Shown: one piece after another, positions 3,569-63,181 of the stretch
Layout: each line of letters opens with the position of its first letter
Numbering within the stretch: the first letter of the stretch is position 1
DNA from: Escherichia phage IME11
DNA: 64,000 nucleotides
Sequence record: NC_019423.1
Strand: one strand, 5' to 3'
The notes under the pieces: model-generated
Told to the model about the DNA's origin: nothing
Database searches by the model: none
Seen by the model: the letters and a program-made list of their open reading frames with translations, nothing else
Program-made: the position numbers and the translations under genes

Positions 3569-5839
3569 ATGGAACACCAAGACACTTTTAAGCCTTTGCC
3601 AGACCCGGCTCAATCAGAGAAGTTAACGGACTGGAAGAAGGAACCAAGTATCCAATTACTGAAGGGTGATTTGGAATCTGCTAAACCTGCTCACGATGCA
3701 ATCATGTCTCAGATTCGTGAGTGGAATGACTTAATGGAAGTCAAGGGTAAAGCTAAACCCCCAAAGATTAAGGGACGCTCACAAGTCCAGCCTAGACTGG
3801 TTCGCCGTCAGGCAGAGTGGCGTTATGCACCATTATCTGAACCATTCCTCTCATCCAGTAAACTCTTTAAGCTAACACCTGTTACTTTTGAAGATGAGTT
3901 AGCTGCACGTCAGAATGAGTTAGTTCTTAACTACCAATTCCGTACTCAGCTTAATAAAGTAAAACTGGTGGATGATTACGTGCACAGTATTGTAGATGAC
4001 GGTACTGGTATTGCTCGTATTGGCTGGGAACGTAAGACCGTTAAGATTAAAACAGAAACTCCTGTCTTCCAGCTTTATCCCATTGAGAACCAGGAACAGG
4101 CAGATGTTCTTCAGCAGGCTTTACAACTTCAGGCAGAGAATCCTCGTGAATATGACGAAACTATGCCTGAAGATATTAAGGAAGCTGTTAACTATTTTAA
4201 TGAAACTGGTGAAGCTACCTATGCAATCCAGACTGGAGTTACTGAGGTAGAGGTAGAGAAAGCACTGGTTAACAGACCTACCGTTGAAATGCTTAACCCT
4301 AATAACGTAGTTATTGACCCAAGCTGTAATGGTGATTTGGATAAGGCTCTTTATGCAGTTATCTCATTCGAGACATGCAAAGCAGACCTCATGAAGAACA
4401 AAGACCGTTATCACAACCTGGATAAGATTGATTGGGAAAGCTCCAGTCCTATTACTGACCCAGACCATGAAAGTAAAACTCCTAGTGACTTCCAGTTTAA
4501 GGATGCACTTCGTAAGAAAGTTGTTGCTTATGAGTACTGGGGATTCTACGACATTAATGATGATGGTTCCCTGGAACCAATTGTTGCTACCTGGATTGGT
4601 TCTACTCTTATTCGTATGGAGAATAACCCATTCCCTGATGGTAAGTTACCTCTGGTGGTCGTTCCATACATGCCTCGTAAACGAGAACTCTTTGGTGAAG
4701 CTGATGCTGAACTATTAGGGGATAACCAAGCAATTCTTGGTGCAACTATGCGTGGGATGATTGACCTGTTGGGTCGAAGTGCAAACGGGCAGCGAGGTTA
4801 TCCTAAGGGGATGCTGGATACTCTTAACCGTCGTCGATACGATGATGGACAAGACTATGAATATAACCCAATGCAGGGTAATCCTAGTCAGTCCATTATG
4901 GAACATAAGTTCCCTGAGTTACCCCAGTCGGCAATAGTAATGACCCAGATGCAAAACCAGGAAGCAGAATCATTAACAGGTGTTAAAGCATTCTCTGGTG
5001 GTGTAACTGGTTCAGCTTATGGAGATGTGGCTGCTGGTATTCGTGGTGCACTTGATGCAGCATCCAAACGTGAGATGGCAATCCTTCGTCGATTAGCTAA
5101 GGGTATGGCAGATATTGGTACTAAGATTTGTGCAATGAATGCCGTGTTCTTATCTGAGAAGGAAGTAGTACGTATTACCAATGAACAATATGTAGAGATT
5201 AAACGAGAAGACCTTAAAGGTAATTTCGATATTGAAGTTGATATTAATACTGCCGAGATTGATAACCAGAAATCCCAGGATTTGGGCTTCATGGTTCAAA
5301 CATTAGGTAACACAGTTGACCAGTCTATTACGTTATCTCTTGTAGCTAAGATTGCAGAACTTAAACGTATGCCAGACCTTGCACATGAGTTACGTACTTG
5401 GCAACCACAACCAGACCCAATGGAAGAACAGCTTAAGCAATTGGCAATTCAGAAAGCACAGCTTGAGAATGAAGAGTTACAAAGTAAGATTGCACTCAAT
5501 AATGCTAAAGCTAAAGAAGCTGCTTCTAGTGGTGACCTTAAAGACCTGGATTATCTGGAACAGGAATCTGGTACTAAACATGCTCGTGATATGGAAAAAC
5601 AAAAAGCACAATCCCAAGGAAACCAGAACCTTCAGATAACTAAGGCATTGACAACACCTACTAAAGAAGGTGAAACTACCCCCAACATATCTGCTGCTGT
5701 TGGATATAACACTTTGACTAACGGGAACTCTCCACAAGAACGTGACTTAGCTGCTCAACAAGACCCAGCTTATTCACTTGGTTCCCAATACTATGACCCT
5801 AGCCAAGACCCAGCATCGGCTCTTGGCATGAACCTGTAA
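3569..5839 (+). CDS. portal protein
   Basis: 756-aa ORF between lysis cassette and capsid genes; size and position match the portal gene of N4-like phages (about 760 aa); no motif confirmed by eye. Confidence 0.65.
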
Positions 5840-15431: not shown

Positions 15432-18400
15432 TTGAACAGGAAACATGCTATGTCAACATTTGACCGTCTGGCAGGTTTCGCAGACAGCATCACTAATGCT
15501 AAGCAAGTCGATGTCTCTACTGCAACCTCTCAGAAGCAAGCTGCACAAGGGCAAAGCCCTTTCCAATTAACCCCAGAGAACGCTTACAATCTCCAAACAG
15601 GACGAGTAGGTAATCTTGGAACTGGTGCATTCGATCCAGGTTCACTTCAGGCTGATTTCACCCAAGCCTCCCCATTAGAAATCATTAATAAGTACGGTAA
15701 TGAGCAAGGTCTACAGATTCTTAATAGCCGAGCTAATGCTGCTGATGTCGTACGTCAGGACTTATCTAAACAGCGTACTAACTCAGAAGCATTTGGCGAT
15801 ACTCTTTCTGGTGTTGGTCTTGGTGTTGCTAATACCCTTGGGGGCATTGCTGCTCTTGGCACAGGTCTGGTCAATGATAATGCCGGGGCATCCATTGCTT
15901 CCGGGATGGATTGGCTGAATGAAGGTGTACATAATCTACAGTCTGATGCACTGAATGCTACTCGTAAGGTTGTTCAGAATCAGAACCAGATTTCTGCACA
16001 AGAGAACCAGAAACTCTATGAAGAAGATATCAAAAATGGGGAGAGCAGTTTGGTTGCCTCCTTGTCTCGCATTGGTCGTGACGCTTTTGATTCTGTTGCT
16101 AATACACTTGATAATGGTATGGCTGCTTCCGATGGACTGAGTGAAGGTGTTGGTTCTCTCTTTACTGGTGGTCCACTTATCCGTGGTGTGTCTGCACTAG
16201 GTAAAGTAATGGTAGGTGGGGATAAAGCTGTTAAGGGTATTACCCTAGCTGCTGAGTTAGGTTCACGTCCTGCACAGGTTGCTCTGTCTGCTGGTCGTGT
16301 TGCTGCACCTGCTGTAGCAATCGGTGGTATGGAAGCTGGTGGAGCATACCAACAGACTGCTTCTGAAATCATGAAGATGTCTCATCAAGAGTTGGCAAGT
16401 AAGTCTCCTGTATATCGACAACATATTGCTGATGGTTTATCTCCTGATGAAGCACGCCGTCAGACTGCATCTGAAACAGGTATTACTGCTGCTGGCTTAA
16501 CTGCTCCAGTTGCTGCTGCTACTGGTCCACTGGTATCTCGTTTTGAACTTAACCCACTTAAGGTAGGTTCACTGGCTGGTGCTGGTTCTAACATGCTCCG
16601 TGAAACTGTAGAAGAGGGTATTCAATCCGGCTTCGGTCAGTTCGCACAGAACACTGCAATTAAGGAAAATGTTGATGCATCCCGTGACACCCTCAAAGGG
16701 GTTGGTGAGCAAGCAGGTCTGGGTGCACTCTATGGCTTTGGTAGTGCTGGAGTTGCTCAAGCTCCTGGTGCAACTGTTAAAGCTGCTGGTGCTGCCGTTG
16801 GTCCTACTGTACGTACTACCTTGGCTGGTGCTTCTCTGGTTGGTAATGCACTAGCAAAAGTAGCTTCTCCTATCACTAACATTCTGGTTCAACGTGGAGA
16901 AGAAGTTGCTAAGCGAAATGAACAAGCATCTCCTGTATCAGATGCTACCGTTAATGCTGCTGCACAAGAAGCTACTGCTCAAGCAGAACAAGCACAAGCA
17001 ACCGTACAGGAAGCAGTAGATGCAATGGATATTTCTCCTGAAGAGAAAGCTGCTGCTACTCAGTATGCTGCTGACTTAACTCAGGCAATGAAGTTTGACC
17101 CAGTAGAACTGGAGCAAGCTAACCCGGCAATCCGTGAAGCTGTTTCTGGTTCCACTAACCGTGTTGAGGCTATCCAGAAGATGGCTGACTTGGTTAATAC
17201 TGCCGAAGACCCTAACATTCAAATGGAAGCTGCTATTCAGATGTATGACAACATCATGTCTATGGATAGCTTCATTAACCGTGACCCAGGTGCACTAGCT
17301 AATCTGGAACAAGGCTCTCCTGCTGCTAATATTGTTGACCAGTTCTCTGGTCTGATGGCTAACGTTCAGAATACACCGAAGGTACTTCGTGCATTCCGTG
17401 CTATTCATTCCATGATTCAGGAACAGGCTGAAGCAGGTAAACTGAAAGCTACTGAAGAAGCTAACCAAGCTCAGGCAAACAACATTGCTATGGCTGCTGA
17501 TATGTCTCCAGAAGTTCTGGATGCAGATTCAGTGAACATGGTTCTGAAACATGCTAGTGAAGGTAAGATTACACTGGGGAATCGTCAACGTGCTGCCCTG
17601 CAATCGGCTGCTGCTGTCTTACAGGGTGCACGTGAGTTCGACGCTAAGGCAGAAGAACTTGGCTTACGTCCTCAAGACATTGTTAGTAAACAGATTAAAA
17701 CTGACGAATCTCGTTCTAATGAAGGCCAGTACTCTGCGTTGCAACATGCGAAACGCATTCGCTCTGCGTACAACTCTGGTAACTTTGATTTGGCCTCCGC
17801 TTACCTTGACGACTTTATGAAGTTCGCCCAGCACATGCAGAATAAGGTCGGAGCGTTGAATGAGCATCTGATTTCGGGGAATGCGGATAAGAATAAGTCT
17901 GTTCACTATCAGGCTCTCTCGCCTTCCCGTGAATGGGTACGTAGTCGTACTGGCCTCGGTGTTAATCCGTATGATACCAAGTCGGTTAAGTTTGCCCAGC
18001 AAGTAGGACTGGAAGCCAAGACCGTAGCTGATATTGCTAATGCACTTGCTACGGCTTACCCGGAGCTTAATGTTTCTCATGTTAAAGTTACTCCATTAGA
18101 TTCACGTCTGGACAAGCCTGCTGCCCAGGTGGTTAAAGAGTTCCGTCAGGGCAATCTTGACGCTGCTCAATCCCAACAGACTAATGAACCAGTGAATCAG
18201 GTTGATGAATCTCCTGCACCAGTGCAAGAGGCCACTACTACTGTACAGCCTAAAACTAAACCAGTGGTAGAAAATAAATCTGCTCCTGTTAAGGATACTA
18301 GTTCAAAACCAGAAGAAGTAACTACTACTGAGTCTGAAACAGTAGATACTGCCCTCACCAATGAGGATACCACTCAGGAAGTAGCTGAAACTAAAACGGA

Positions 18401-21400
18401 AATGGAAACAGTGTTCCCTGTCTATAACAATGACAAGACACCGAGCCAGTTCCTTAAAGCATTTGCTCTGCCGGAAGAACCTAAGACTCGTACCATTGGT
18501 TCTGAATCTCCTTTGACTGATGTTAAGCAAGCACTGTCTTCTGCTGCTCGCTTTGAAGCATTCACACAAAAAGAAAATAACGCTCTCACGGGTGATGTGA
18601 TGAAACGTTATCAAGACTTACTAGGCTTTGGTGAAACTCTGAAGAGTACTCTGTCTGACCGTCTGGCTAAGTTCCTTGCTAACAAGAATGTTGGTAAACG
18701 TTTTGCAGAGGGTACTGAGGCTAACCGTTGGGTAGGTGGCAAACTGCTGAATATCGTTGAGAAAGATGGCGACACCTTTAAGTTCAACGACCAGTTGTTG
18801 GAGACTGCTGTACTTGCTGGATTGCAATGGCGATTAACTGCTACGCAGAATGCTGCCATTAAAGACATGAAAGACGTAGCTGCTATTACTGGTGTAGAAG
18901 TATCCTTGTTACCTGATGGTATTCTGGCTGACTTTGAGAATGCTCAGACCCTGGTTGAAGCTACTAACTCACTGGCCCAAAAGATTGAATCTTACTGGGG
19001 TTTGAATCGTAATCCAAATGCACCACTGGGTTATACCAAAGGTATCCCAATGGCAATGGCTACGGAGATTCTGTCTTCTCTCATTGAGATGGGTGAAGTT
19101 AAAGAGTCTATGCTGGATGTGTCTGAAATTGACCCAGCCTCCAATAAGACTGTTGGTCTGTATACTATTGAGAAGCTGGATGATAATGATGCCATTAATA
19201 ATTTTCCTACTGCTATTGAGGAAGCTGTCCTCGTAGAACCAGAAGAGAAAATGTACTTCGGTGATGATATTCCTTCCGTGGCTCAAACTCAGTTACGTAA
19301 CCCGGCTGTTAAGAATACCCCGGAACAGCAAGCTGCTCTTAAAGCAGAACAGGCTACTGAGTTCCGTGTACACATGCCTATGGTTAACTTCTATGAAGCA
19401 TTGGGTCGTGACAACATTCTGGAACTGATGGGTGCTGGTACTCTTAATCCTGAATTACTGAACGTAAACACTGCTAAATCATTGGAAGGTAAAAACCTGT
19501 CCGTGTCTATGGCATACGATTCCTTGTTTGGGGTAATCAATCAGGTTCAGGAACAGGAGAACGGACTGGATACACCTATTCACTATGGTTACAACATGAC
19601 CCGTGTAGGTCGTATGCAGATGCTTGGTAAGAATAACCCACAATCCAGTAAGCTGGTTCGTGAAGCAATTCTGCCAACCTTCTCTACTATCGACTTGAGT
19701 AATGAAAACAGCCAAACGTTCTCAGACTTCCAGTTAGGTCTGGCTCAGGCATTAGGCATCAAGGTACATAACATGTCCCGTGAAGCTATGTCTGAAAAGC
19801 TGACTAAAGCTCTGGAAGGTAATCTGAAACCTGCTGTTGATATGATGGTTGAGTTTGATAAGTCTGGTCACTTACCTACTGATGCAGTGGATATTCTGAA
19901 GACCTCTTTAGGTGGCGATAAATCATTCGTAGCTCTCATGGCTCTGATGGAATATGCCCGTTACCTGAATAGTAACGACCGTGCTAATTTTAATACCCCA
20001 CTGTACGTTGAAGCCGATGGTGTAACCAACGGACCAATTAACGCAATGGTATTAATGACCGGTGGTAAGTTCACTCCAGACTGGATTAAGAATACTGCTA
20101 AAGGTGGTTTGTTCTTCGGTAAAGCTGGTAAGACTATGAACGAGCATCGTTCACAGGATGACAGTGTTGACCTGTATGAAGCATCTACTAATGGTCTGCA
20201 ACAGGCACTTGGTGAATTACGTAGTACTTACCGTAACAACGTTCCTGTTATGAGCCAGATGAGTCATCTCCAGAAGTTAATGGACCTGTTCATCAAAGAC
20301 TTTAACCTGAATGAAGACGGTACACTGGACCTGAAACGTGGTATCGCTAAAAATCCACTAACCATTACCATCTATGGTTCTGGTGCTCGTGGTATTGCTG
20401 GCAAGATGGTTAGTGCAATTACTGATACCATCTACGAACGCTTCAGCGACGTTCTGCAAGCTCGTGCTGCTGACCCTAGCATTTCCCCGGCTATGGCAAT
20501 GTTTGGTAAGGAGGCTGCATCTGAGGCCGATGCTCAGGCTATGCTGGATACTTTCCTTACTTCTATGGAAGCACTGACTGGTAATGTTCCAGTTATGCGT
20601 AAGGGTGAGTTGTCTATTCAGCAAGCAGAAGGTGCTCTGACTGGTAAGTTAGACCCACAGAAGTTTACTGTATCTGGTAATGCCCTGAAGAACTTACAAG
20701 AGAACATGCTTCACCTGTTCGTTGAACCAATGCGTACTGGTATCCGAAATACTGTTGGTGAAGGTCTGATGCATTCTACTGAGAACTTACAGAAGGCTAC
20801 CCAGATTCAATCTCTGGTATTGCAGGATATGTTCCAACAAGCAGTACAGGCTAAACTGGCAGAAAAAGAAAAAGACCCAACATGGAAGAAAGGTGATTTC
20901 TTAACACAGAAAGAACTGAATGAAATTCAGGAATCATTATCTCCACTGGCTCCAATGATTGAGACTGGCTCACAGACTTTCTACATTGCTGGTAGTGAGA
21001 ACACTGATGTTGCTAACCAAGTACTGGCTACTAACTTAGATGACCGTATGCGTGTGCCAATGAGCATCTATGCTCCTTCACAAGCAGGTGTTGCAGGTAT
21101 TCCATTTATGACCATCGGTACTGGTGACGGCATGATGATGCAGACCCTTTCTACTATGAAAGGTGCTCCGAAGAATACCCTGAAAATCTTTGATGGTATG
21201 AACATTGGTATCAATGACATCACTGATGCAAGTCGTAAAGCTAATGAGGCTGTATATACTTCCTGGCAGGGTAACCCTATCAAGAATGTTTATGACTCCT
21301 TTGCTAAGTTCATGAAGAACGTAGACTTCAGCAAACTGTCTGATGAAACCAAACAGGCTATCGCTAAATCTGCTCTGGAATACGACCAGCGTGAGGGTGC

Positions 21401-24400
21401 TACTGATGACCTGTTACGTATTGGTGCTGAACAGATTGAACGTAATCTGCGTAACATTGCTCTGGGTGTAGATATTCGCCACAAGGTAATGAACCAGGTA
21501 CAGACTACTGTTGACCAGATGGCTGCTGTAGGTGCTCCTTATGTGAACAACGGTAAAATTTCTCTGGAAGGTCTGACTGTAGACCAACAAGTAGCTAAGC
21601 TGAACGAACTGTTTGATGTTGAATTAAACAAGCGTCGTGATGCAGTACGTGCTGCTAAAGCAGAACCAGTGAAAGAAGTACCAGCAATGGAACAGGTTGG
21701 TCGTGTACTGAAGTCTGGTGTACGTCTACTGTCTAATACTGCTATTACTAAGTTGGCTAAAGAGATGACTCCAGAACAGGCTGCTGTACTGAAAGAAGTA
21801 CAGAACTCCCTTGCTGCTAAAGACTACAAGGTTGTTTATGGCACTCCTTCTCAACTGGATGCCTACGCTATTGAGAAGAACATTACTCGCCCAGCACCGG
21901 AAGATATTGAAGCTGCTGAAGCTGGTAATGCATACGGCTGGACTAACTTTGATGATAAGACCATCTACTTAGTTACTCCTTCCTTAGAGACTCTGGTTCA
22001 TGAATTGGTACATGCTTCTACTTTTGAATCTGTACTGGCTCACTATGAAGGTACTCCTAATGAAGCAGTTCAGAATATTGAAGACCTGATGAACCAGTTC
22101 CGAACTCTGGATGTTAAGGATGAATCCCCGGCAGTACGTGAAGCATATGCTGATGCACTCAATACCATTAATGGTCACTTGTCTAATGGCTTTATTGAAC
22201 CAGCAATGGCTAAAGCTGCTGCACTGAATGAGTACATGGCATGGGGCTTAACCAACCGTGAACTGATTGGTAAGCAGAAGAAAACCACTGCACTTAAGGC
22301 CATGGTTCAGTCTGTGTATGAAGCAATCAAACGTCTGGTATTCGGACGTAAGAAAGCCCCTGCTAACGCAGATGATATGTTCTCTGGCTTACTGTTTAAC
22401 TCTTCTGTAGTTATGCGTGGGCAGGCTCCTACTGCTGCTGTAGCCAAGGACACTACTCTGTTCCATAACAAAGCATATGGTGACAATACTCGTCTGGAAG
22501 AGCTAGGGAAGACCTTCGATAAACTGATTACTAACTACATTGGTTCAGAACCAGTACAACAAGTAATTCGTAAAGGTAAGTTCTCTGATGCAGTAGTGAA
22601 TGCAACTAAAGTAACCCGTGATGTTCAGGCTCATGGCTTCACTATGAATATGCAGGAACAGCGTCTCTTTACTAACATTGTTGCTGCACTGGCTACCGAA
22701 GCTGCTATTAGTCCAGCTGCTCTGGCTCGTGCACAAGAATACTATGCACACGTAACCAAGAACCTGACTGTTGAAGCGTTCATGACTGACCCGGATAGTA
22801 CTAACCCTGCTGACCGTTACTACGCACAGCAGAAGTTCGATACCATCATGGGTGCTAACAACATTGAGTTTGATGCACAAGGTCGTTCTTCCTTACTGCC
22901 TACCTTTGTGGCACTGGCAATGGTAAGTGAAGATGTACGTAATGTGCTGGCTGACATTCCTGTTATGAAAGCAGATAAGCAATCCGGTAATACCGTTGAT
23001 GCAATGCTGACTAATATCGGTACTGCTGCAATGGCTAGTCTGAATGCTCGTGTAGCAGGTGATACTAAAGCTACCAATGTACAAGAAGGTATGGATGCAC
23101 TGGCTCAGACCATCATGCAGACCAGTCTTAATGCACAGTCATTCTATGATTCCGTCGCCACTCCTAGTGGTAATGCTATAGACCGTGCTAACCAGTATCT
23201 GGTGGACTCTATTGATGTACTGTCTACCCGTGCTTTAGAAGGTGCTCGTGAAGTTGCAGCTAATACCAAGAACCCGTTGGTTAAAGGTGCTGCTCATGCT
23301 GCACAACTGGTAGCTGCTATTGCTACAGAGAAGAATGGTGCAATCGTAGCTGAAGGTGTTATGGCTGCAATGAACCAGGGTAAAGCATGGCAACCTTTCC
23401 ACGACCTGGTTAATGACTTAACCGGACGTACTAAGAGCAATGCTTCTGTATATGATTTGATTAAAGCAGTTCGTGCACAGGTACAGGCTGACCGTCAACA
23501 GTTCCGTGAACACTTACCTACCACTATCGCATCCAAGTTCAGCCGTAAGCTGACTAATGATGAGTGGAAAGCAATGCATACCGGTATGGGTAAAACTGAC
23601 TTGGCTGTCCTGCGTGACACTATGTCTTTGGCTGAAATTCGTGACCTGCTGACTGACCAGAAGATTGTTGACCGTGAGGTGAATAAGCTGGAAGCAGATT
23701 TACAGAAACAAGCAGGACGTAACTGGCCTTTGATTAGCCGTAAATCTAAGCAACTGGCTCAGTACATGATTAACGGTACAGTCGGTAGTAACCTGCTGCG
23801 TAATGCTACTGCAATTTCTCGTATGCTGGGTGAACGACAGGCTGCACGTTCTACCGTAGATGTGGCTCAACTGGATAAGCTGATTACCTTGTATGCACTG
23901 GAAGCAATGAATAAGACTGACCGTGAGATGTTATCTTCACTGGCTCAGACAGAAATTGAAGGTATGGACTTTGCTACTTCTTATCTGGTTGGGCAGCGTA
24001 AAGATGAAATGGCTAAAGCCAAGTCTGATATGCGTGCAACCTTGAACCAGTACAAAGGACATATCCCCAGTGAAACTAAACAGGGTGTTAACCTGATTGT
24101 TGCTGAAGATAGTCAGTTTGCTGATTTGATTGAGAAGTCCTATGTACGTCTGGGTACTTATCAAGGTAGTTCTGCTAACCGTGGTCCAGCACGTAGCTAC
24201 TACTTTGCACCAGTACAGGCACAGGCTCCATTCTCACAGGGTATATTACAGAACGTTCGCAATACTGCTGGTGGTGTGGACCTTGGTACAGGCTTTACGA
24301 TGGGTTCCATGGTAGCAGGTCGTATCACTGACAAGCCTTCCGTAGACCGTATCACTAAAGCTCTGGCTCGTGGTGAACGTGGTAATGAACCACTGCTGCC

Positions 24401-25802
24401 TGTATATGATGACAAAGGGAATGTGGTTGCTTATGAGCAATCCATTGACCCTAACATGCTGAAGCACATTGAGGGTGAGAACCATCTTGCTCGTGCAATC
24501 GGTGTATGGCGTGGTCGTCAGGTAGAAGAGGCTAAGGCTCAGCGTTTCAACGATATGCTTATTGAGAACCTACATAGCATGTATGAGAACGACATTAAGA
24601 TGTCTGCCTCTAATAAGTCCCAGTACGTTAACCTTCTTGGTTCTAAACTGGACCCAGTAACTGCCGATGCTCTTAAGCTGATGAATAGTGAAACTCGTCA
24701 GAAAGCAGAAAGCCTGTTTGGCCCGGGTGAGTTGTGGGTACGTCGTGATATGCTCAACGATGCTCTTGGTTATCGTGCAGCTTCTGTAGGGGATGCCTGG
24801 TCTGGTAATTCTCGTTGGTCCCCAGAAACACTGGATACCTTCAAGAAAGCTATGCTAGGTGTATTTGGCAATCGTGCATATAAGTACACAATGGGTGGTG
24901 AGAACCTGGTTCAGAACTTAGTTAAAGAAGCTAAGACCCTGATTGTAGTTAAGTCAGTAGTCGTACCTGCAGTTAACTTCCTAGCTAACCTTTACCAGAT
25001 GGTTGCTCGTGGTGTACCGGTTAAGAACATTGCTAAGAGCATTCCACAGAAGACTGCTGAGATTAACCAGTACCTGAAATCTCGTCTACGTCAGGTAGAT
25101 GCAGAAGCAGAATTACGTGCAGCTACTAACCCGAACCAGATTCGTAAACTTAAGGCTGAGATTCAGTCCATCTCTGATAGCCATAAGCGTTTAAGTATCT
25201 GGCCTCTGTTAGAAGCTGGTGAGTTCTCTTCAATTGCAGATGCTGGTATCGGACGTGATGACATCCTTATTACTGAGGGTAAACTTCACGAATACATGGA
25301 TAAGCTGGCTGATAAGCTACCTAAGTCTGTACGTAACGCAGGTCGTTATGCACTTATCACTAAGGATACTGCTCTCTTCCAGGGTATCCAGAAGACGGTT
25401 GAGTACTCTGACTTTATCGCTAAAGCAATCATCTATGATGAACTGACTCAGCGTAAAGGTAAGACTCGTGAGGAAGCACTGGGACGTGTAACGGAAGAGT
25501 TCATTAACTATGATCGTTTACCTGGTCGCTTCCGTGGGTATATGGAAAGCATTGGCTTAATGTGGTTCTACAACTTTAAGATTCGTTCTGCAAAAGTTGC
25601 AGTGTCCATGATTCGTAATAACCCAGTACATGCTGCTATGGCTATGTTGGCTCCAACCCCTACCATGTTTGGTAATGTTGGTTTACCTATTCAGGACAAC
25701 ATCTTCAGCATTGCTGCACAGGGCAATCTCGGTTACTCCTTCGGTTTCGGTCAGGGCTTACGTGCCCATAACCTGAACCCTTGGCTCAATCTTACTAACT
25801 AA
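15432..25802 (+). CDS. virion-encapsidated RNA polymerase (N4 gp50-like vRNAP)
   Basis: Single 3456-aa ORF (10.4 kb); central region has T7-like single-subunit RNAP motifs (motif A-like LYVEADGVTNG, motif B-like KNPLTITIYGSGARG); size matches the roughly 3500-aa N4 vRNAP. Confidence 0.85.
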   Translation: MNRKHAMSTFDRLAGFADSITNAKQVDVSTATSQKQAAQGQSPFQLTPENAYNLQTGRVGNLGTGAFDPGSLQADFTQASPLEIINKYGNEQGLQILNSRANAADVVRQDLSKQRTNSEAFGDTLSGVGLGVANTLGGIAALGTGLVNDNAGASIASGMDWLNEGVHNLQSDALNATRKVVQNQNQISAQENQKLYEEDIKNGESSLVASLSRIGRDAFDSVANTLDNGMAASDGLSEGVGSLFTGGPLIRGVSALGKVMVGGDKAVKGITLAAELGSRPAQVALSAGRVAAPAVAIGGMEAGGAYQQTASEIMKMSHQELASKSPVYRQHIADGLSPDEARRQTASETGITAAGLTAPVAAATGPLVSRFELNPLKVGSLAGAGSNMLRETVEEGIQSGFGQFAQNTAIKENVDASRDTLKGVGEQAGLGALYGFGSAGVAQAPGATVKAAGAAVGPTVRTTLAGASLVGNALAKVASPITNILVQRGEEVAKRNEQASPVSDATVNAAAQEATAQAEQAQATVQEAVDAMDISPEEKAAATQYAADLTQAMKFDPVELEQANPAIREAVSGSTNRVEAIQKMADLVNTAEDPNIQMEAAIQMYDNIMSMDSFINRDPGALANLEQGSPAANIVDQFSGLMANVQNTPKVLRAFRAIHSMIQEQAEAGKLKATEEANQAQANNIAMAADMSPEVLDADSVNMVLKHASEGKITLGNRQRAALQSAAAVLQGAREFDAKAEELGLRPQDIVSKQIKTDESRSNEGQYSALQHAKRIRSAYNSGNFDLASAYLDDFMKFAQHMQNKVGALNEHLISGNADKNKSVHYQALSPSREWVRSRTGLGVNPYDTKSVKFAQQVGLEAKTVADIANALATAYPELNVSHVKVTPLDSRLDKPAAQVVKEFRQGNLDAAQSQQTNEPVNQVDESPAPVQEATTTVQPKTKPVVENKSAPVKDTSSKPEEVTTTESETVDTALTNEDTTQEVAETKTEMETVFPVYNNDKTPSQFLKAFALPEEPKTRTIGSESPLTDVKQALSSAARFEAFTQKENNALTGDVMKRYQDLLGFGETLKSTLSDRLAKFLANKNVGKRFAEGTEANRWVGGKLLNIVEKDGDTFKFNDQLLETAVLAGLQWRLTATQNAAIKDMKDVAAITGVEVSLLPDGILADFENAQTLVEATNSLAQKIESYWGLNRNPNAPLGYTKGIPMAMATEILSSLIEMGEVKESMLDVSEIDPASNKTVGLYTIEKLDDNDAINNFPTAIEEAVLVEPEEKMYFGDDIPSVAQTQLRNPAVKNTPEQQAALKAEQATEFRVHMPMVNFYEALGRDNILELMGAGTLNPELLNVNTAKSLEGKNLSVSMAYDSLFGVINQVQEQENGLDTPIHYGYNMTRVGRMQMLGKNNPQSSKLVREAILPTFSTIDLSNENSQTFSDFQLGLAQALGIKVHNMSREAMSEKLTKALEGNLKPAVDMMVEFDKSGHLPTDAVDILKTSLGGDKSFVALMALMEYARYLNSNDRANFNTPLYVEADGVTNGPINAMVLMTGGKFTPDWIKNTAKGGLFFGKAGKTMNEHRSQDDSVDLYEASTNGLQQALGELRSTYRNNVPVMSQMSHLQKLMDLFIKDFNLNEDGTLDLKRGIAKNPLTITIYGSGARGIAGKMVSAITDTIYERFSDVLQARAADPSISPAMAMFGKEAASEADAQAMLDTFLTSMEALTGNVPVMRKGELSIQQAEGALTGKLDPQKFTVSGNALKNLQENMLHLFVEPMRTGIRNTVGEGLMHSTENLQKATQIQSLVLQDMFQQAVQAKLAEKEKDPTWKKGDFLTQKELNEIQESLSPLAPMIETGSQTFYIAGSENTDVANQVLATNLDDRMRVPMSIYAPSQAGVAGIPFMTIGTGDGMMMQTLSTMKGAPKNTLKIFDGMNIGINDITDASRKANEAVYTSWQGNPIKNVYDSFAKFMKNVDFSKLSDETKQAIAKSALEYDQREGATDDLLRIGAEQIERNLRNIALGVDIRHKVMNQVQTTVDQMAAVGAPYVNNGKISLEGLTVDQQVAKLNELFDVELNKRRDAVRAAKAEPVKEVPAMEQVGRVLKSGVRLLSNTAITKLAKEMTPEQAAVLKEVQNSLAAKDYKVVYGTPSQLDAYAIEKNITRPAPEDIEAAEAGNAYGWTNFDDKTIYLVTPSLETLVHELVHASTFESVLAHYEGTPNEAVQNIEDLMNQFRTLDVKDESPAVREAYADALNTINGHLSNGFIEPAMAKAAALNEYMAWGLTNRELIGKQKKTTALKAMVQSVYEAIKRLVFGRKKAPANADDMFSGLLFNSSVVMRGQAPTAAVAKDTTLFHNKAYGDNTRLEELGKTFDKLITNYIGSEPVQQVIRKGKFSDAVVNATKVTRDVQAHGFTMNMQEQRLFTNIVAALATEAAISPAALARAQEYYAHVTKNLTVEAFMTDPDSTNPADRYYAQQKFDTIMGANNIEFDAQGRSSLLPTFVALAMVSEDVRNVLADIPVMKADKQSGNTVDAMLTNIGTAAMASLNARVAGDTKATNVQEGMDALAQTIMQTSLNAQSFYDSVATPSGNAIDRANQYLVDSIDVLSTRALEGAREVAANTKNPLVKGAAHAAQLVAAIATEKNGAIVAEGVMAAMNQGKAWQPFHDLVNDLTGRTKSNASVYDLIKAVRAQVQADRQQFREHLPTTIASKFSRKLTNDEWKAMHTGMGKTDLAVLRDTMSLAEIRDLLTDQKIVDREVNKLEADLQKQAGRNWPLISRKSKQLAQYMINGTVGSNLLRNATAISRMLGERQAARSTVDVAQLDKLITLYALEAMNKTDREMLSSLAQTEIEGMDFATSYLVGQRKDEMAKAKSDMRATLNQYKGHIPSETKQGVNLIVAEDSQFADLIEKSYVRLGTYQGSSANRGPARSYYFAPVQAQAPFSQGILQNVRNTAGGVDLGTGFTMGSMVAGRITDKPSVDRITKALARGERGNEPLLPVYDDKGNVVAYEQSIDPNMLKHIEGENHLARAIGVWRGRQVEEAKAQRFNDMLIENLHSMYENDIKMSASNKSQYVNLLGSKLDPVTADALKLMNSETRQKAESLFGPGELWVRRDMLNDALGYRAASVGDAWSGNSRWSPETLDTFKKAMLGVFGNRAYKYTMGGENLVQNLVKEAKTLIVVKSVVVPAVNFLANLYQMVARGVPVKNIAKSIPQKTAEINQYLKSRLRQVDAEAELRAATNPNQIRKLKAEIQSISDSHKRLSIWPLLEAGEFSSIADAGIGRDDILITEGKLHEYMDKLADKLPKSVRNAGRYALITKDTALFQGIQKTVEYSDFIAKAIIYDELTQRKGKTREEALGRVTEEFINYDRLPGRFRGYMESIGLMWFYNFKIRSAKVAVSMIRNNPVHAAMAMLAPTPTMFGNVGLPIQDNIFSIAAQGNLGYSFGFGQGLRAHNLNPWLNLTN

Positions 25803-57116: not shown

Positions 57117-57278
57117 TTAGATGGTTACTACGTCTGCAGTTAGTTTGTAAATTATGGTTTTACTCTTAGGGTTCTGTAGCTTGTAAAGCTTCTCAAAGTA
57201 TAAGCACTTCACATATGTACCTGAGTAAATACACTCTTCATTAACCCATAGCTCATAGGAGCCAATGTTAGTCTTCAT
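57117..57278 (-). CDS. small ORF (53 aa) between the two RNAP II subunit genes
   Basis: Below the ORF-track cut-off; AAGGAG RBS 8 nt upstream of the ATG; start overlaps the upstream stop by 11 nt. Confidence 0.4.
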   Translation of the reverse strand: MKTNIGSYELWVNEECIYSGTYVKCLYFEKLYKLQNPKSKTIIYKLTADVVTI

Positions 57279-58086
57279 TTACTAACTCCTTATCAGCGAA
57301 CTCCAGCACAGCTTTGTTGTAACTGGTTCCCTGATAGTTGATGTGGTAGCCACAGGCATATGTACGCCCACGTTTGTCATATTTGTGAGCCAAGGAGAAG
57401 TTATTGCCTTCTTTGGTTACTAGCTCCATTACTTCCTTAGCTGTACGACTGTACTTCTCAAAGGCTTTAACACGTTTCTCATAGTCCTGACGGGTTTCAC
57501 CTTCTTTGGGTTTATCCATGTTAGGACGAGAGTCTTTTACGTAGTTAGCAACGTCCCAGTTAATGCAGAGACGTTGATTATTCATACGGTTGATGTGGTC
57601 AAGACAGACGTCCATCTCATGATGGTTCTTCTTGAGGATGATGCTTCCTTTGCTTTCGTAGTAACCGGTGTCACGGTTACTCATAACAGGCTTAGGAGCA
57701 CTTACGATAGGCAATGGGTACTGGAATGCTTCCAGTTCCATCTGTACATCTTCACCAATCTCATAAATAACACCGAACTTGTCGATGGTAGGGTCATAGT
57801 TGAAGCAGTCATTCTCTGCCATCTTATACAGACAGTCAGCGATGTACTGAGCATCATCTGAGTGACTCATGAGGGAGCCAATCATAGTTTGAATGTCAGC
57901 TCGTTTATGTAGGGCAATCTGCACCATTGCATCAATGAGCAGCTTATAATCAATTTCTAAATAGGCAGCGAATGCCTTAAAGTCAATTTCTTTGGAGTCC
58001 TCGAATTCCTTCCTCATGCGAGGCAGGAGCTGATTTTTATTGAATAGTACTTCGAGTTGCTTCTGATGTTCGATTGACGAGTACAT
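57268..58086 (-). CDS. phage RNA polymerase II, N-terminal-type subunit
   Basis: 272 aa; C-terminal YDKRGRTYACGYHINYQG resembles the T7 RNAP D-x-x-G-R region (DWRGRVYAVSMFNPQG, from memory). Confidence 0.55.
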   Translation of the reverse strand: MYSSIEHQKQLEVLFNKNQLLPRMRKEFEDSKEIDFKAFAAYLEIDYKLLIDAMVQIALHKRADIQTMIGSLMSHSDDAQYIADCLYKMAENDCFNYDPTIDKFGVIYEIGEDVQMELEAFQYPLPIVSAPKPVMSNRDTGYYESKGSIILKKNHHEMDVCLDHINRMNNQRLCINWDVANYVKDSRPNMDKPKEGETRQDYEKRVKAFEKYSRTAKEVMELVTKEGNNFSLAHKYDKRGRTYACGYHINYQGTSYNKAVLEFADKELVNED

Positions 58087-58139
58087 CGCTTATTCTCCTA
58101 AATGTGATTAATAACCAAAAGCTGCGGAGCAGCTATTAC

Positions 58140-61082: not shown

Positions 61083-61268
61083 TTACTCCTTATGGAGTTT
61101 ACGGATTTGTTTACGGGTAGGTTTAGTTACAAAGAAGTGGTCATAGCAACGACCATTTTCATCTTTTACAGATACCTGCCAACGAGCATTCAATGTCATC
61201 TTACTGCCCCAAGGCTGTAATGTAACAATCAACTTCTGTGAGTTATAACGGTTACATACTGTACGCAT
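61083..61268 (-). CDS. small basic protein, paralog of 61922..62128
   Basis: C-terminal FFVTKPTRKQIRKLHKE shares KPT(R/K)KQIRKL with the 68-aa ORF at 61922..62128. Confidence 0.5.
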   Translation of the reverse strand: MRTVCNRYNSQKLIVTLQPWGSKMTLNARWQVSVKDENGRCYDHFFVTKPTRKQIRKLHKE

Positions 61269-61373: not shown

Positions 61374-61402
61374 AAAAATAAAAGACTCCCCGAAGGGAGT
61401 CC
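61374..61402 (-). terminator. rho-independent terminator with CUUCGG-type loop
   Basis: GACTCCC-TTCG-GGGAGTC hairpin followed on the minus strand by TTTTATTTTTAAC. Confidence 0.6.
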
Positions 61403-61411
61403 AGTGGTTGA

Positions 61412-61795
61412 TTAGAAAGTCAGTTTACGAGCATATTTATTCTCGTCTGCTGGGATGTCAGCAGCCTCTGCTTTCACTCGACGAAGTTGAACTTGCAGGT
61501 TAATGATACCTTCTTCACCTGGTTCCAGGTTCTGAGCATATTCAATTAACTGTTCCAGCAAGTCGTTCTGTGCACAACGCATAGCACGGAAGTCAGCATT
61601 GCTGCTATTAGTAGGCAGTGGTTCCTGAGTATCCAGTGGAATACCAGTGGGCAAAGAGATGAACTTCTCTTCTTCAGAGCCTTCATTAGCTACATAACCA
61701 ATGTTTAACCAGAACTGTGCCTTAGGCTTAGCAGCTTTAGATTCAGTAGAAGCAGCAGCGTTAGATTGACCGAAAGTGAATTTTTGAATAGACAT
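61412..61795 (-). CDS. hypothetical early protein (127 aa)
   Basis: ORF track 61412..61888; Met at 61795 preceded by GGAGAG RBS. Confidence 0.5.
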
Positions 61796-61902
61796 TTTGT
61801 ACTCTCCAGATTTATGTGATTTACGGGTGAACTCGTCGGTGAGAACACCCAAACAAAAGGATAAAAGTTCAATGATTAGTGGATGCATTTACATCATCCA
61901 TA

Positions 61903-61917
61903 AGACGCGGAGCGTCT
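61903..61917 (-). promoter_or_regulatory. candidate virion-RNAP (N4-type) early promoter hairpin
   Basis: Template (+) strand AGACGC-GGA-GCGTCT: 6-bp stem, 3-nt GGA loop, upstream of 61412..61795; one of three near-identical hairpins. Confidence 0.45.
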
Positions 61918-61921
61918 AGTT

Positions 61922-62128
61922 TTAGATTGCTTCTTTACGAAACTCTCTACGCAATTTACGGATTTGTTTCTTGGTAGGCTTAGCAGGGAATGAATGACAA
62001 GCAACATAGTGCTGTCTCTCTGTTACGTTAGTAATCTCTGAGAACCAAAGATTCCACTGAGCATCCATCTTACCTAACAATCCACCATTGTTACTCTTGT
62101 TTGCAAACAGGGAAGTTTGAATACGCAT
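61922..62128 (-). CDS. small basic protein, paralog of 61083..61268
   Basis: C-terminal FPAKPTKKQIRKLRREFRKEAI; GGAG RBS. Confidence 0.5.
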   Translation of the reverse strand: MRIQTSLFANKSNNGGLLGKMDAQWNLWFSEITNVTERQHYVACHSFPAKPTKKQIRKLRREFRKEAI

Positions 62129-62161
62129 AGCTTAATCTCCAATAGTTAAATGATAGCCAAT

Positions 62162-62176
62162 AGATGTGGAGCATCT
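62162..62176 (-). promoter_or_regulatory. candidate virion-RNAP (N4-type) early promoter hairpin
   Basis: Template (+) strand AGATGT-GGA-GCATCT: 5-bp stem plus T.G, GGA loop; 34 nt upstream of the ATG of 61922..62128. Confidence 0.45.
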
Positions 62177-62182
62177 TGGTTT

Positions 62183-62383
62183 TTAAGGAATGTAAGAAAA
62201 CCAGGTTAGCAGTTCAGCTTTAGCTTTCTGATACTTACTGTCTACATTTTCATCTGAGATATCTATGTCTGATTCTCCATAATGATGGAGGTCAGACTGA
62301 TATTGTTCTTGCTGACGAACGGCTTCTTCAAAGCGTTCTAAAGCTTCTTGTGGAGATTCAGATTTGCAATCTGTTAGAGACAT
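62183..62383 (-). CDS. small acidic protein (66 aa)
   Basis: ORF; Glu/Asp-rich. Confidence 0.45.
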   Translation of the reverse strand: MSLTDCKSESPQEALERFEEAVRQQEQYQSDLHHYGESDIDISDENVDSKYQKAKAELLTWFSYIP

Positions 62384-62385
62384 AC

Positions 62386-62568
62386 TTATTCCTTAGTTAG
62401 TTCAACTATAAAGTTATCTAGTTTCTGCCTAGCTATTTCACACGATTCTACTATTGATTCATAGTCATCAGGGTCTGCTGAACCAGCCCAACTATCTGCA
62501 ATTGCTGATTCTGCGTAGTTACTAATTAGCTTTTTAAGCTTCTCTGCTTGCTTAGGATTAAGGGACAT
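62386..62568 (-). CDS. hypothetical protein (60 aa)
   Basis: ORF with AGGAGAAG RBS. Confidence 0.45.
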   Translation of the reverse strand: MSLNPKQAEKLKKLISNYAESAIADSWAGSADPDDYESIVESCEIARQKLDNFIVELTKE

Positions 62569-62621
62569 TTTACTTCTCCTAAAGTAGATAGTTATCTACT
62601 TTTGACTATCTATCTAATGTT

Positions 62622-62649
62622 CAAAACAGGAGACTCCGAAGAGTCTCCT
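62622..62649 (-). terminator. rho-independent terminator with CUUCGG-type loop
   Basis: AGGAGACTC-TTCG-GAGTCTCCT hairpin followed on the minus strand by GTTTTGAAC. Confidence 0.5.
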
Positions 62650-62656
62650 AGGTGAC

Positions 62657-62980
62657 TTAGTCTTTAGTCAGGATGTCAATTACTTTAGAATATTCTGCGT
62701 TATAGATACGAGCGTTCTCTGAATCTTTGCAGAAATCTTCGATACTTTTCTTACGCAGAGTCTCGTTCCTAGCTGTTTCCTCTGCCAGTTTATTAACAAA
62801 GGTATGCATTTCTAATTTAGTACGAATGGCTTGTTTCTCTGCCATAGTACTTACATATGAATTAAGCATACCTACTGCTTTAGTTGCTGTACCAAATGTA
62901 TCTGCAACAGTAGTAGCAGCTGAGTTAACAGTACCAAGTAAAGTTCCTGCGGTCATACGTACAGTAGCGGTAGTAGTCAT
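62657..62980 (-). CDS. hypothetical early protein (107 aa)
   Basis: ORF with GGAG RBS; first gene downstream of the 63023-63037 hairpin. Confidence 0.5.
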   Translation of the reverse strand: MTTTATVRMTAGTLLGTVNSAATTVADTFGTATKAVGMLNSYVSTMAEKQAIRTKLEMHTFVNKLAEETARNETLRKKSIEDFCKDSENARIYNAEYSKVIDILTKD

Positions 62981-63022
62981 GATGATAGCTCCAATAGTTG
63001 ATGATAGGACGACATGTCCATA

Positions 63023-63037
63023 ACATGCGGAGCATGT
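63023..63037 (-). promoter_or_regulatory. candidate virion-RNAP (N4-type) early promoter hairpin
   Basis: Template (+) strand ACATGC-GGA-GCATGT: 6-bp stem, GGA loop; about 50 nt upstream of the ATG of 62657..62980. Confidence 0.45.
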
Positions 63038-63062
63038 GTAACGTGTAAGGTGGGGTAGGGTA

Positions 63063-63181
63063 GTGGCTACACCGTCAACATACCGGGGGGGCTAGTTGAG
63101 TGTAAGGGTGTAGCCCCAGCCACACCACTGTAGCCATACATAGCTATCATCATTTTGGTATGCAAAAATACCATAGCTATC
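63063..63181. repeat. cluster of inverted and direct repeats in the 230-bp early intergenic region
   Basis: Inverted repeat GGCTACACC (63065-63073) / GGTGTAGCC (63107-63115); direct repeat CATAGCTATC at 63139-63148 and 63172-63181 flanking a TGGTAT/ATACCA hairpin; partial direct repeat GTGTAAGG(G)TG at 63036 and 63099. Confidence 0.5.

Follow-up and report, generated by a model that had tools for sequence, protein, structure and literature searches.

Putative N4-type hairpin promoters for the virion RNA polymerase in the early region of Escherichia phage IME11

The stretch of DNA analyzed here (the window) comprises 64,000 nt of Escherichia phage IME11 (NC_019423.1), a member of the genus Gamaleyavirus (G7C-like) in the subfamily Enquatrovirinae, family Schitoviridae; phage N4 belongs to a sister genus in the same subfamily. 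Its early region is 88–95% identical, in mosaic blocks, to those of G7C-like coliphages, and a search of the phage collection with this region returned no record covering at least 80% of it. The records of several relatives begin at a point equal to window positions 63115-63123, and N4 position 1 aligns at about 63120; the window therefore crosses the junction of the genome ends. The hairpins described below lie in what is the leftmost early region of the genome, read in reverse complement: the ORFs are on the minus strand, and the + strand is their template.

Reading away from this junction, the first gene is an ortholog of N4 gp1 (62657-62980, minus strand; 66% identical to the N4 protein; phrog_5020). 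It is followed by a terminator-like hairpin on the same strand (62630-62650), read by eye as AGGAGACTC-TTCG-GAGTCTCCT and then GTTTTG. Counterparts are found at the same place in N4 and in SP5M, where the hairpin is annotated as a terminator; the consensus terminator scan did not flag the window copy, whose tail has only 4 T. Two ORFs (62386-62568 and 62183-62383) come after this terminator and have no hairpin promoter of their own. Next is a 68-aa ORF (61922-62128, minus strand; phrog_2375, E 2.8e-23), whose counterparts in SP5M and U1G, 93–96% identical, likewise come after a hairpin. The gp2 ortholog (RNAPII cofactor, ssDNA-binding protein; 61412-61888, minus strand) is 69% identical to N4 gp2, but phrog_4099 aligns with it from residue 32 only, and its true start is therefore likely to be at 61795; an intrinsic-terminator-like hairpin found by the terminator scan comes after it (61383-61402, minus strand). 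Farther along is an ortholog of gp15, an N4 RNAPII subunit (57268-58086, minus strand; 65% identical). Sigma-70-like sites are depleted between 56500 and 64000, with 9 observed against 21.7 ± 5.2 expected, which fits early expression independent of the host RNA polymerase.

Four inverted repeats are distributed among these genes, all on the + strand and at most 5.1 kb from the genome-end junction at ~63120, each forming on the template strand a stem of 5–7 bp with a 3-nt loop. The first-pass annotation had listed three hairpins, AGACGC-GGA-GCGTCT (61903-61917), AGATGT-GGA-GCATCT (62162-62176), and ACATGC-GGA-GCATGT (63023-63037), and had placed them on the template (+) strand of minus-strand early genes; the sequence bears out both the letters and the strand. 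Its count of three is too low: it missed a hairpin at 58121-58133, outside the coordinates it had covered, which was found by a generic hairpin scan of the window.

The site nearest the junction, which we call P1-type (63016-63040, minus strand), has the template hairpin CATGC-GGA-GCATG at 63024-63036 and a predicted +1 at template C 63019, from which transcription would proceed toward lower coordinates into gp1. The second, Px (62155-62179, minus strand), is a putative extra promoter without N4 counterpart ahead of the 68-aa ORF, with the template hairpin GATGT-GGA-GCATC at 62163-62175 and a predicted +1 at template C 62158. The P2-type site (61896-61920, minus strand; template hairpin GACGC-GGA-GCGTC, 61904-61916; predicted +1 at template C 61899) is upstream of gp2, and the P3-type site (58113-58137, minus strand; template hairpin GCTGC-GGA-GCAGC, 58121-58133; predicted +1 at template C 58116) is upstream of gp15. 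A distance of 30–50 nt to the next ORF had been proposed for the three hairpins first listed. It holds for the one at 63023 (43 nt, ATG 62980) and the one at 62162 (34 nt, ATG 62128), but not for that at 61903, which is 15 nt from the first possible ATG (61888) and ~108 nt from the likelier start at 61795.

An alignment of the sites from +3 to -21 shows the loop GGA and the bases -11G, -10G, -8G, and +1C in each of the four; all four also have CC at +2/+1, separated from the hairpin by a 4-nt A/T spacer (ATAA, AATA, ATAA, and AAAA). The +1 C, 11 nt from the loop centre, was tested at the sequence level, and the start positions are accordingly given as predictions. A C(-9):G(-13) pair closes the stem in three of the sites (63024, 61904, and 58121). 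At Px, T62167 (-9) faces G62171 (-13) as a wobble in the innermost stem position, so that the "same design" ascribed to the three hairpins first listed is shared by those at 61903 and 63023 and not by that at 62162, which has T.G in place of C:G closure. DNA folding gives a 6-bp stem and a 3-nt loop for three sites, and a 5-bp stem with a 5-nt loop for Px. The nearest-neighbour energies of the DNA hairpins are modest (-4.5 to -5.7 kcal/mol, z-scores -2 to -3.4), with parameters that omit the sheared G:A pair and the special stability of GCGNAGC mini-hairpins.

The N4 early promoters P1, P2, and P3 are well studied (Haynes & Rothman-Denes, 1985; Glucksmann et al., 1992; Gleghorn et al., 2008; reviewed in PMC4496689). 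In the template-strand sequence of the N4 reference, P1 reads CCATAA-GTTGC-GAA-GCAAC, ~95 nt from the left end; P2, before gp2, reads CCAAAA-GAAGC-GGA-GCTTC, in agreement with the P2 oligonucleotide of a 2026 cryo-EM study; and P3, between gp14 and gp15, reads CCAAAA-GCTGC-GGA-GCAGC. When these were aligned with the window, three sites fell in register. By flank alignment and downstream gene, the hairpin at 63024-63036 is identified as the ortholog of P1 (gp1), that at 61904-61916 as the ortholog of P2 (gp2), and that at 58121-58133 as the ortholog of P3 (gp15, RNAPII subunit). The flanks of the first are in register with N4 P1 and with the N4 left end, and its stem shows two compensatory pair changes relative to GTTGC/GCAAC; the flanks of the second are in register with N4 P2, with CATCC at the start site common to both; and the third, which reads CCAAAA-GCTGC-GGA-GCAGC, is identical over 21 bases, from CCAAAA through the hairpin, to the hairpin in the N4 gp14-gp15 intergenic gap, again with flanks in register. 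The trio listed by the first-pass annotation thus corresponds to P1 and P2 plus an extra promoter absent from N4, and not to P1-P3. A GTGGAGC at N4 4107-4113 was considered as P3 and rejected: it has no inverted-repeat flanks, and P3 is in the gp14-gp15 gap.

The window and N4 therefore have in common a template-strand hairpin with a 5–7 bp stem, a G-R-A loop, a GC...GC core and -8G, a 4-nt A/T spacer, CC at +1/+2, and the positions of three sites: one ahead of gp1 at ~95 nt from the left genome end, one ahead of gp2, and one ahead of gp15. They differ in the P1 loop (GGA in IME11, GAA in N4), in the P1 stem (CATGC vs. GTTGC), in the P2 stem (GACGC vs. GAAGC) and spacer (ATAA vs. AAAA), and in the presence in IME11 of a fourth promoter between gp1 and gp2, within a segment of ~700 bp that is absent from N4.

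A non-circular search used a covariance model built from N4 P1-P3 alone and run against the whole window on both strands (128 kb) with filters off. Its four best matches are these four sites, all on the + strand: 58113-58137 (31.0 bits, E 9e-6), 61896-61920 (29.9 bits, E 1.9e-5), 63016-63039 (22.1 bits, E 0.0027), and 62155-62179 (19.0 bits, E 0.019), the last being marginal and the lowest of the four. The fifth-ranked match has 12 bits and E 1.7. An 11-seed model separates them more widely, with 29–35 bits for the four sites and at most 15 bits for everything else in the window. The IUPAC pattern suggested by the first-pass annotation was also searched, and matches only its three sites in 64 kb on both strands, although this test is circular, the pattern having been derived from the sites themselves; it is also too narrow, missing the P3 ortholog by requiring A at -6. 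The bare heptamer GYGGAGC shows no enrichment in the window (11 observed, 8.4 expected), and is therefore not diagnostic alone: the stem and the CC start are needed as well. A generic scan for 5-bp hairpins with GNA loops found 47 matches in the window, only four of which combine the GC...GC core with CC at +1/+2. An AT-rich palindrome at 62581-62602 was tried as a recurring promoter motif and rejected, as it occurs in a single copy in the window.

Early regions were compared among G7C, SP5M, Mimir124, PE007, U1G, ST4, PD205, Jgk1, KKP 3715, Bp4, nithesis, K57alpha1.2, KP8, and N4. With model R1, each locus that covers the early region in full has 3–6 sites, practically all of them on the template strand; the opposite strand gives weak matches only, namely the complement of N4 P3 (14.0 bits) and one in another locus (L015 5674-5698, 16.9 bits). 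Lack of conservation in related phages had been named as grounds for discarding the promoter reading; instead, template-strand hairpins are carried by every one of the 13–15 related genomes compared, and the CATGC-GGA-GCATG copy of the P1-type site is identical in nine. In a set of 49 matches (33 distinct) from 14 loci of 13 related genomes, 98.2% of cells pair, and there are compensatory changes in four of the five stem pairs among the 33 distinct sequences. The covariation score of 0.536 compares with 0.118 in shuffles and a maximum of 0.114 with slid partners. Among the 33 distinct sequences the G(-8):C(-14) pair is invariant, and -8G is also present at each of the four sites in the window. 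Across relatives' sites, stems covary and the GC-GGA-GC core is fixed; on this sequence evidence, the pattern of conservation is that of the N4 rule, with contact bases kept and the outer stem free to change but paired.

In N4, the virion RNA polymerase (vRNAP) specifically recognises -11A/G, -10G, -8G, and +1C; extrusion and stability depend on the C:G closing pair, along with the G at the 5' end and the A at the 3' end of the loop (PMC4496689). Hydrogen bonds join residues K114 and R119 to -10G and -11G, W129 forms a stack with -11G, D901 reads -9C/-10G, and R904 reads -8G via the major groove (PMC4496689). The predicted reader of the window hairpins is the 3456-aa product of a vRNAP gene at 15432-25802 (+ strand), whose polymerase domain, at about residues 990-2100, matches N4 vRNAP structures at E = 0. 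With mini-vRNAP numbering transferred via the K-x4-R-x9-W spacing and the NLDDRMRVP motif, all five promoter-reading residues (K114, R119, W129, D901, and R904) are conserved, as are K849 and K850; the sole change among the residues checked is K267 to N in the beta-intercalating hairpin. With these contact residues conserved, the window vRNAP should share the promoter specificity of N4's.

Taken with the positional orthology to N4 P1 and P2, the recognition set, and the covariation of the stems, this indicates that the hairpins are very probably N4-type early promoters for the vRNAP, as the first-pass annotation had proposed, and that there are four of them in the IME11 early region. Homology to N4 is the basis on which function is assigned to all four putative promoters. 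The element is ordinary for the N4-like phage family, its copies being orthologs, in a further relative, of promoters of a class that is thoroughly characterised.

By analogy with N4 biochemistry, from which extrusion, SSB dependence, and start sites are all carried over, host gyrase would supercoil the injected DNA, and each inverted repeat with its GC-GGA-GC core would then extrude on the template (+) strand as a small hairpin with a 5–7 bp stem and a 3-nt loop. EcoSSB would melt the complementary hairpin and leave the template-strand hairpin intact; the vRNAP would read -11G, -10G, and -8G within it and start RNA at the template C that lies 11 nt away from the centre of the loop, so that transcripts would begin with GG, at predicted starts 63019, 62158, 61899, and 58116. 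The promoters would thus drive gp1, the 68-aa accessory ORF, gp2, and gp15 with the downstream RNAPII genes. Extrusion at physiological supercoiling would be favored since the heptamer GCGGAGC is the same extraordinarily stable motif, with a sheared G:A pair, as the d(GCGNAGC) mini-hairpin (PMC13037366), which is a physical motif and not a promoter class; the 62163 site, with GTGGAGC, departs from it. The two ORFs that follow the gp1 terminator have no such hairpin, and the four sites therefore leave part of early expression unexplained.

Inverted repeats in intergenic gaps could have other functions. If they worked chiefly as RNA elements, whether intrinsic terminators or attenuators, on minus-strand transcripts arriving from upstream, a U tract should follow the stem. 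The P3-type site comes closest, its AAAA spacer giving UUUU behind the RNA stem, and the terminator scan does flag 58134-58120 on the minus strand (AGCTGCTCCGCAGCT then TTTGGTTATT); at 63023, 62162, and 61903, however, the tail of the RNA would read UUAUGG or UAUUGG, the stems of only 5–6 bp are short for RNA terminators, and separate, much stronger terminators are already present behind gp1 and gp2. The conserved features moreover lack symmetry, with GGA on the template strand and, at 11 nt, a CC on one side only, and they coincide with the vRNAP contact set, a constraint not expected of an RNA terminator, so this explanation seems very improbable. Still less probable is that these near-palindromic intergenic sites are double-stranded DNA operators for a dimeric phage or host regulator, or chance palindromes: the stem sequence is free as long as it is paired, whereas an operator recognised by its sequence would be expected to show the reverse; the GGA at the centre is invariant, non-palindromic, and specific to one strand; copies in relatives are essentially all on one strand; and the E-values of the N4-only model exclude chance.

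A more serious question concerns Px alone. It could be a decaying or inactive relic, with only three of the four sites active and the 68-aa ORF expressed by read-through only. Orthologs of Px precede the same 68-aa ORF in SP5M, U1G, ST4, PE007, and K57alpha1.2. At -9, every one of those in relatives (5–6) has C, and their stems are GAAGC, GACGC, or GATGC; the K57alpha1.2 stem is that of the window Px except for base -9. T62167 is therefore a C-to-T transition private to IME11. It breaks the closing pair, which in N4 is required for extrusion and stability, D901 contacting -9C/-10G (PMC4496689). Folding opens the T.G pair into the larger loop noted above, and the N4-only score of Px is the lowest of the four. 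On the other hand, the four bases read directly by the vRNAP (-11G, -10G, -8G, and +1C) are intact, as are the stem, the spacer, and the CC start; one G7C hairpin also has T at -9, compensated to a T:A pair, which shows that -9C is not absolute in nature; and no other promoter is evident for the 68-aa ORF. We consider complete inactivity unlikely on balance. Since the N4 extrusion rule requires a C:G closing pair, Px is predicted to extrude less well than the others and is probably the weakest of the four, but with its recognition bases intact it is likely to retain residual activity.

With four N4-type promoters in the IME11 early region as the preferred reading, a close published parallel is Klebsiella phage KP8, for which putative early promoters P1-P4 have been listed (Morozova et al., 2019, PMC6950046, Table 1; annotated in MG922974). 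Their layout is the same: one promoter ahead of gp1, one ahead of a small ORF that immediately precedes gp2, one ahead of gp2 itself, and one upstream of the region of RNAPII subunit B. KP8 P2 (template CCATAAGACGCGGAGCGTC) is identical to the window hairpin at 61904 and its spacer, and occupies the slot of the window Px. KP8 belongs to a different genus, however (Kaypoctavirus); the 68-aa ORF of the window is unrelated to the small ORF that follows the extra promoter of KP8, and the stems of all four KP8 promoters close with the canonical C:G pair, unlike that of Px. Early hairpin promoters are also known from Pseudomonas phage LUZ7 (Ceyssens et al., 2010, PMC3715699; Putzeys et al., 2022, PMC9163698), where ONT-cappable-seq confirmed them and mapped nine early TSSs, mostly at hairpins (PMC9163698). 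They resemble those described here in having 3-nt loops, in serving an injected vRNAP, in preferring G as initiating nucleotide, and in numbering more than three per genome; LUZ7 is of a distant genus, though, with stems down to 4 bp and TSSs 13–14 nt from the hairpin centre, vs. 11 here. More than three hairpin promoters per genome is therefore not new for the family, given the four putative ones listed for KP8 and the nine mapped early TSSs of LUZ7. For G7C, a search of GenBank features and of literature that did not extend to the original G7C paper found no description of such promoters.

These sites leave the understanding of the mechanism unchanged; their value is in annotation and comparison. 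They provide four predicted early transcription units with start sites for a G7C-like coliphage, in a group where the GenBank records of relatives are mostly without promoter features, and they correct the view that three is the fixed number of early promoters in N4-like coliphages. Natural variants, namely T.G in IME11, T:A in G7C, and a -10A loop in K57alpha1.2, are ready tests of the closing-pair rule derived from N4 mutagenesis. Depending on the phage, the slot just upstream of P2 holds the 68-aa ORF, a distantly related 92-aa ORF, or unrelated 71-aa ORFs, and each variant carries its own hairpin. We tentatively suggest, as something short of the probable reading, that the gp1-gp2 interval is a hot-spot for small accessory genes acquired together with their own vRNAP hairpin, as "promoter-plus-ORF" cassettes. 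If so, the number of early promoters would range from three to at least five among close relatives through cassette gain, loss, and point decay, and the T.G copy of the window and the T:A copy of G7C would be intermediates.

The slot directly upstream of P2, the hairpin promoter before gp2, is filled by differing small ORFs from phage to phage, each preceded by its own predicted hairpin promoter. It lies at 61922-62128 in the window, and in the early-region loci of related phages at L005:5237-5452 (G7C), L009:5072-5350, L011:5060-5338, and L012:4973-5188. The occupant is a 68-aa ORF in the window, SP5M, U1G, ST4, and PE007; a distantly related 92-aa ORF in PD205 and KKP 3715; and unrelated 71-aa ORFs in G7C (gp1.2) and KP8. 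An extra promoter is absent from Bp4, nithesis, and N4.

The 68-aa ORF (minus strand) has a C-terminal motif, KPTxKQIRKL, in common with a 61-aa ORF downstream of gp2 (61083-61268, also minus strand), with 12 of 18 residues identical. Because PHROG families 2375 and 7840 cross-match the two reciprocally, they look like diverged paralogs.

Two natural hairpin variants fall at positions regarded as essential in N4. The extra hairpin upstream of G7C gp1.2 (L005:5479-5503), GCTGT-GGA-ACAGC, has a T:A closing pair, and the hairpin at the P2 position of K57alpha1.2 (L015:5011-5035) has an AGA loop, with A at -10. Either variant might reflect a weak promoter, variation that is tolerated, or a sequencing error. 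In the K57alpha1.2 record (OY979416.1), DNA primase and SSB are annotated across the stretch aligning to the early gp1-gp2 region, and for this reason its feature table appears to be out of register with its own sequence.

Downstream of the gp1 terminator, at 62183-62568 on the minus strand, are two small ORFs of 60 aa (phrog_653) and 66 aa (phrog_24403), neither having its own hairpin promoter; candidate routes for their transcription are read-through of the terminator or a different polymerase. Between the terminator and the RBS and ATG of the minus-strand ORF at 62386-62568 is a perfect AT-rich palindrome, AAAGTAGATAGTTATCTACTTT (62581-62602). No second copy is found in the 64 kb window, and a 16-mer from it, TAAAGTAGATAGTTAT, recurs in N4, likewise between the gp1 terminator and P2. 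The palindrome might be a regulator site, or an element of a middle (RNAPII) promoter.

For gp2 itself (minus strand), one start option, at 61888, is 11 nt past the predicted +1 and lacks a clear RBS, and another, at 61795, has a GGAGAG RBS. The PHROG profile alignment begins only at residue 32, and the short form is annotated in several relatives; the protein sequence encoded by the N-terminal 31 codons (61795-61888) is nevertheless conserved in N4.

The physical genome-end junction falls inside the window, at about 63040-63130: relatives' records start at the equivalent of window positions 63115-63123, and the first base of N4 aligns near 63120. The terminal ~90 nt include a G7 run along with short inverted repeats, conserved with N4. 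P1, the hairpin promoter before gp1, falls within the direct terminal repeat, for which Mimir124 has an annotated length of 403 bp, and about 95 nt separate it from the left end. In the Jgk1 record (PV292302.1) there are two P1 hairpins 500 bp apart, a doubling that probably represents the terminal repeat assembled in tandem. With its location within the direct terminal repeat, P1 should be present at both ends of the packaged DNA.
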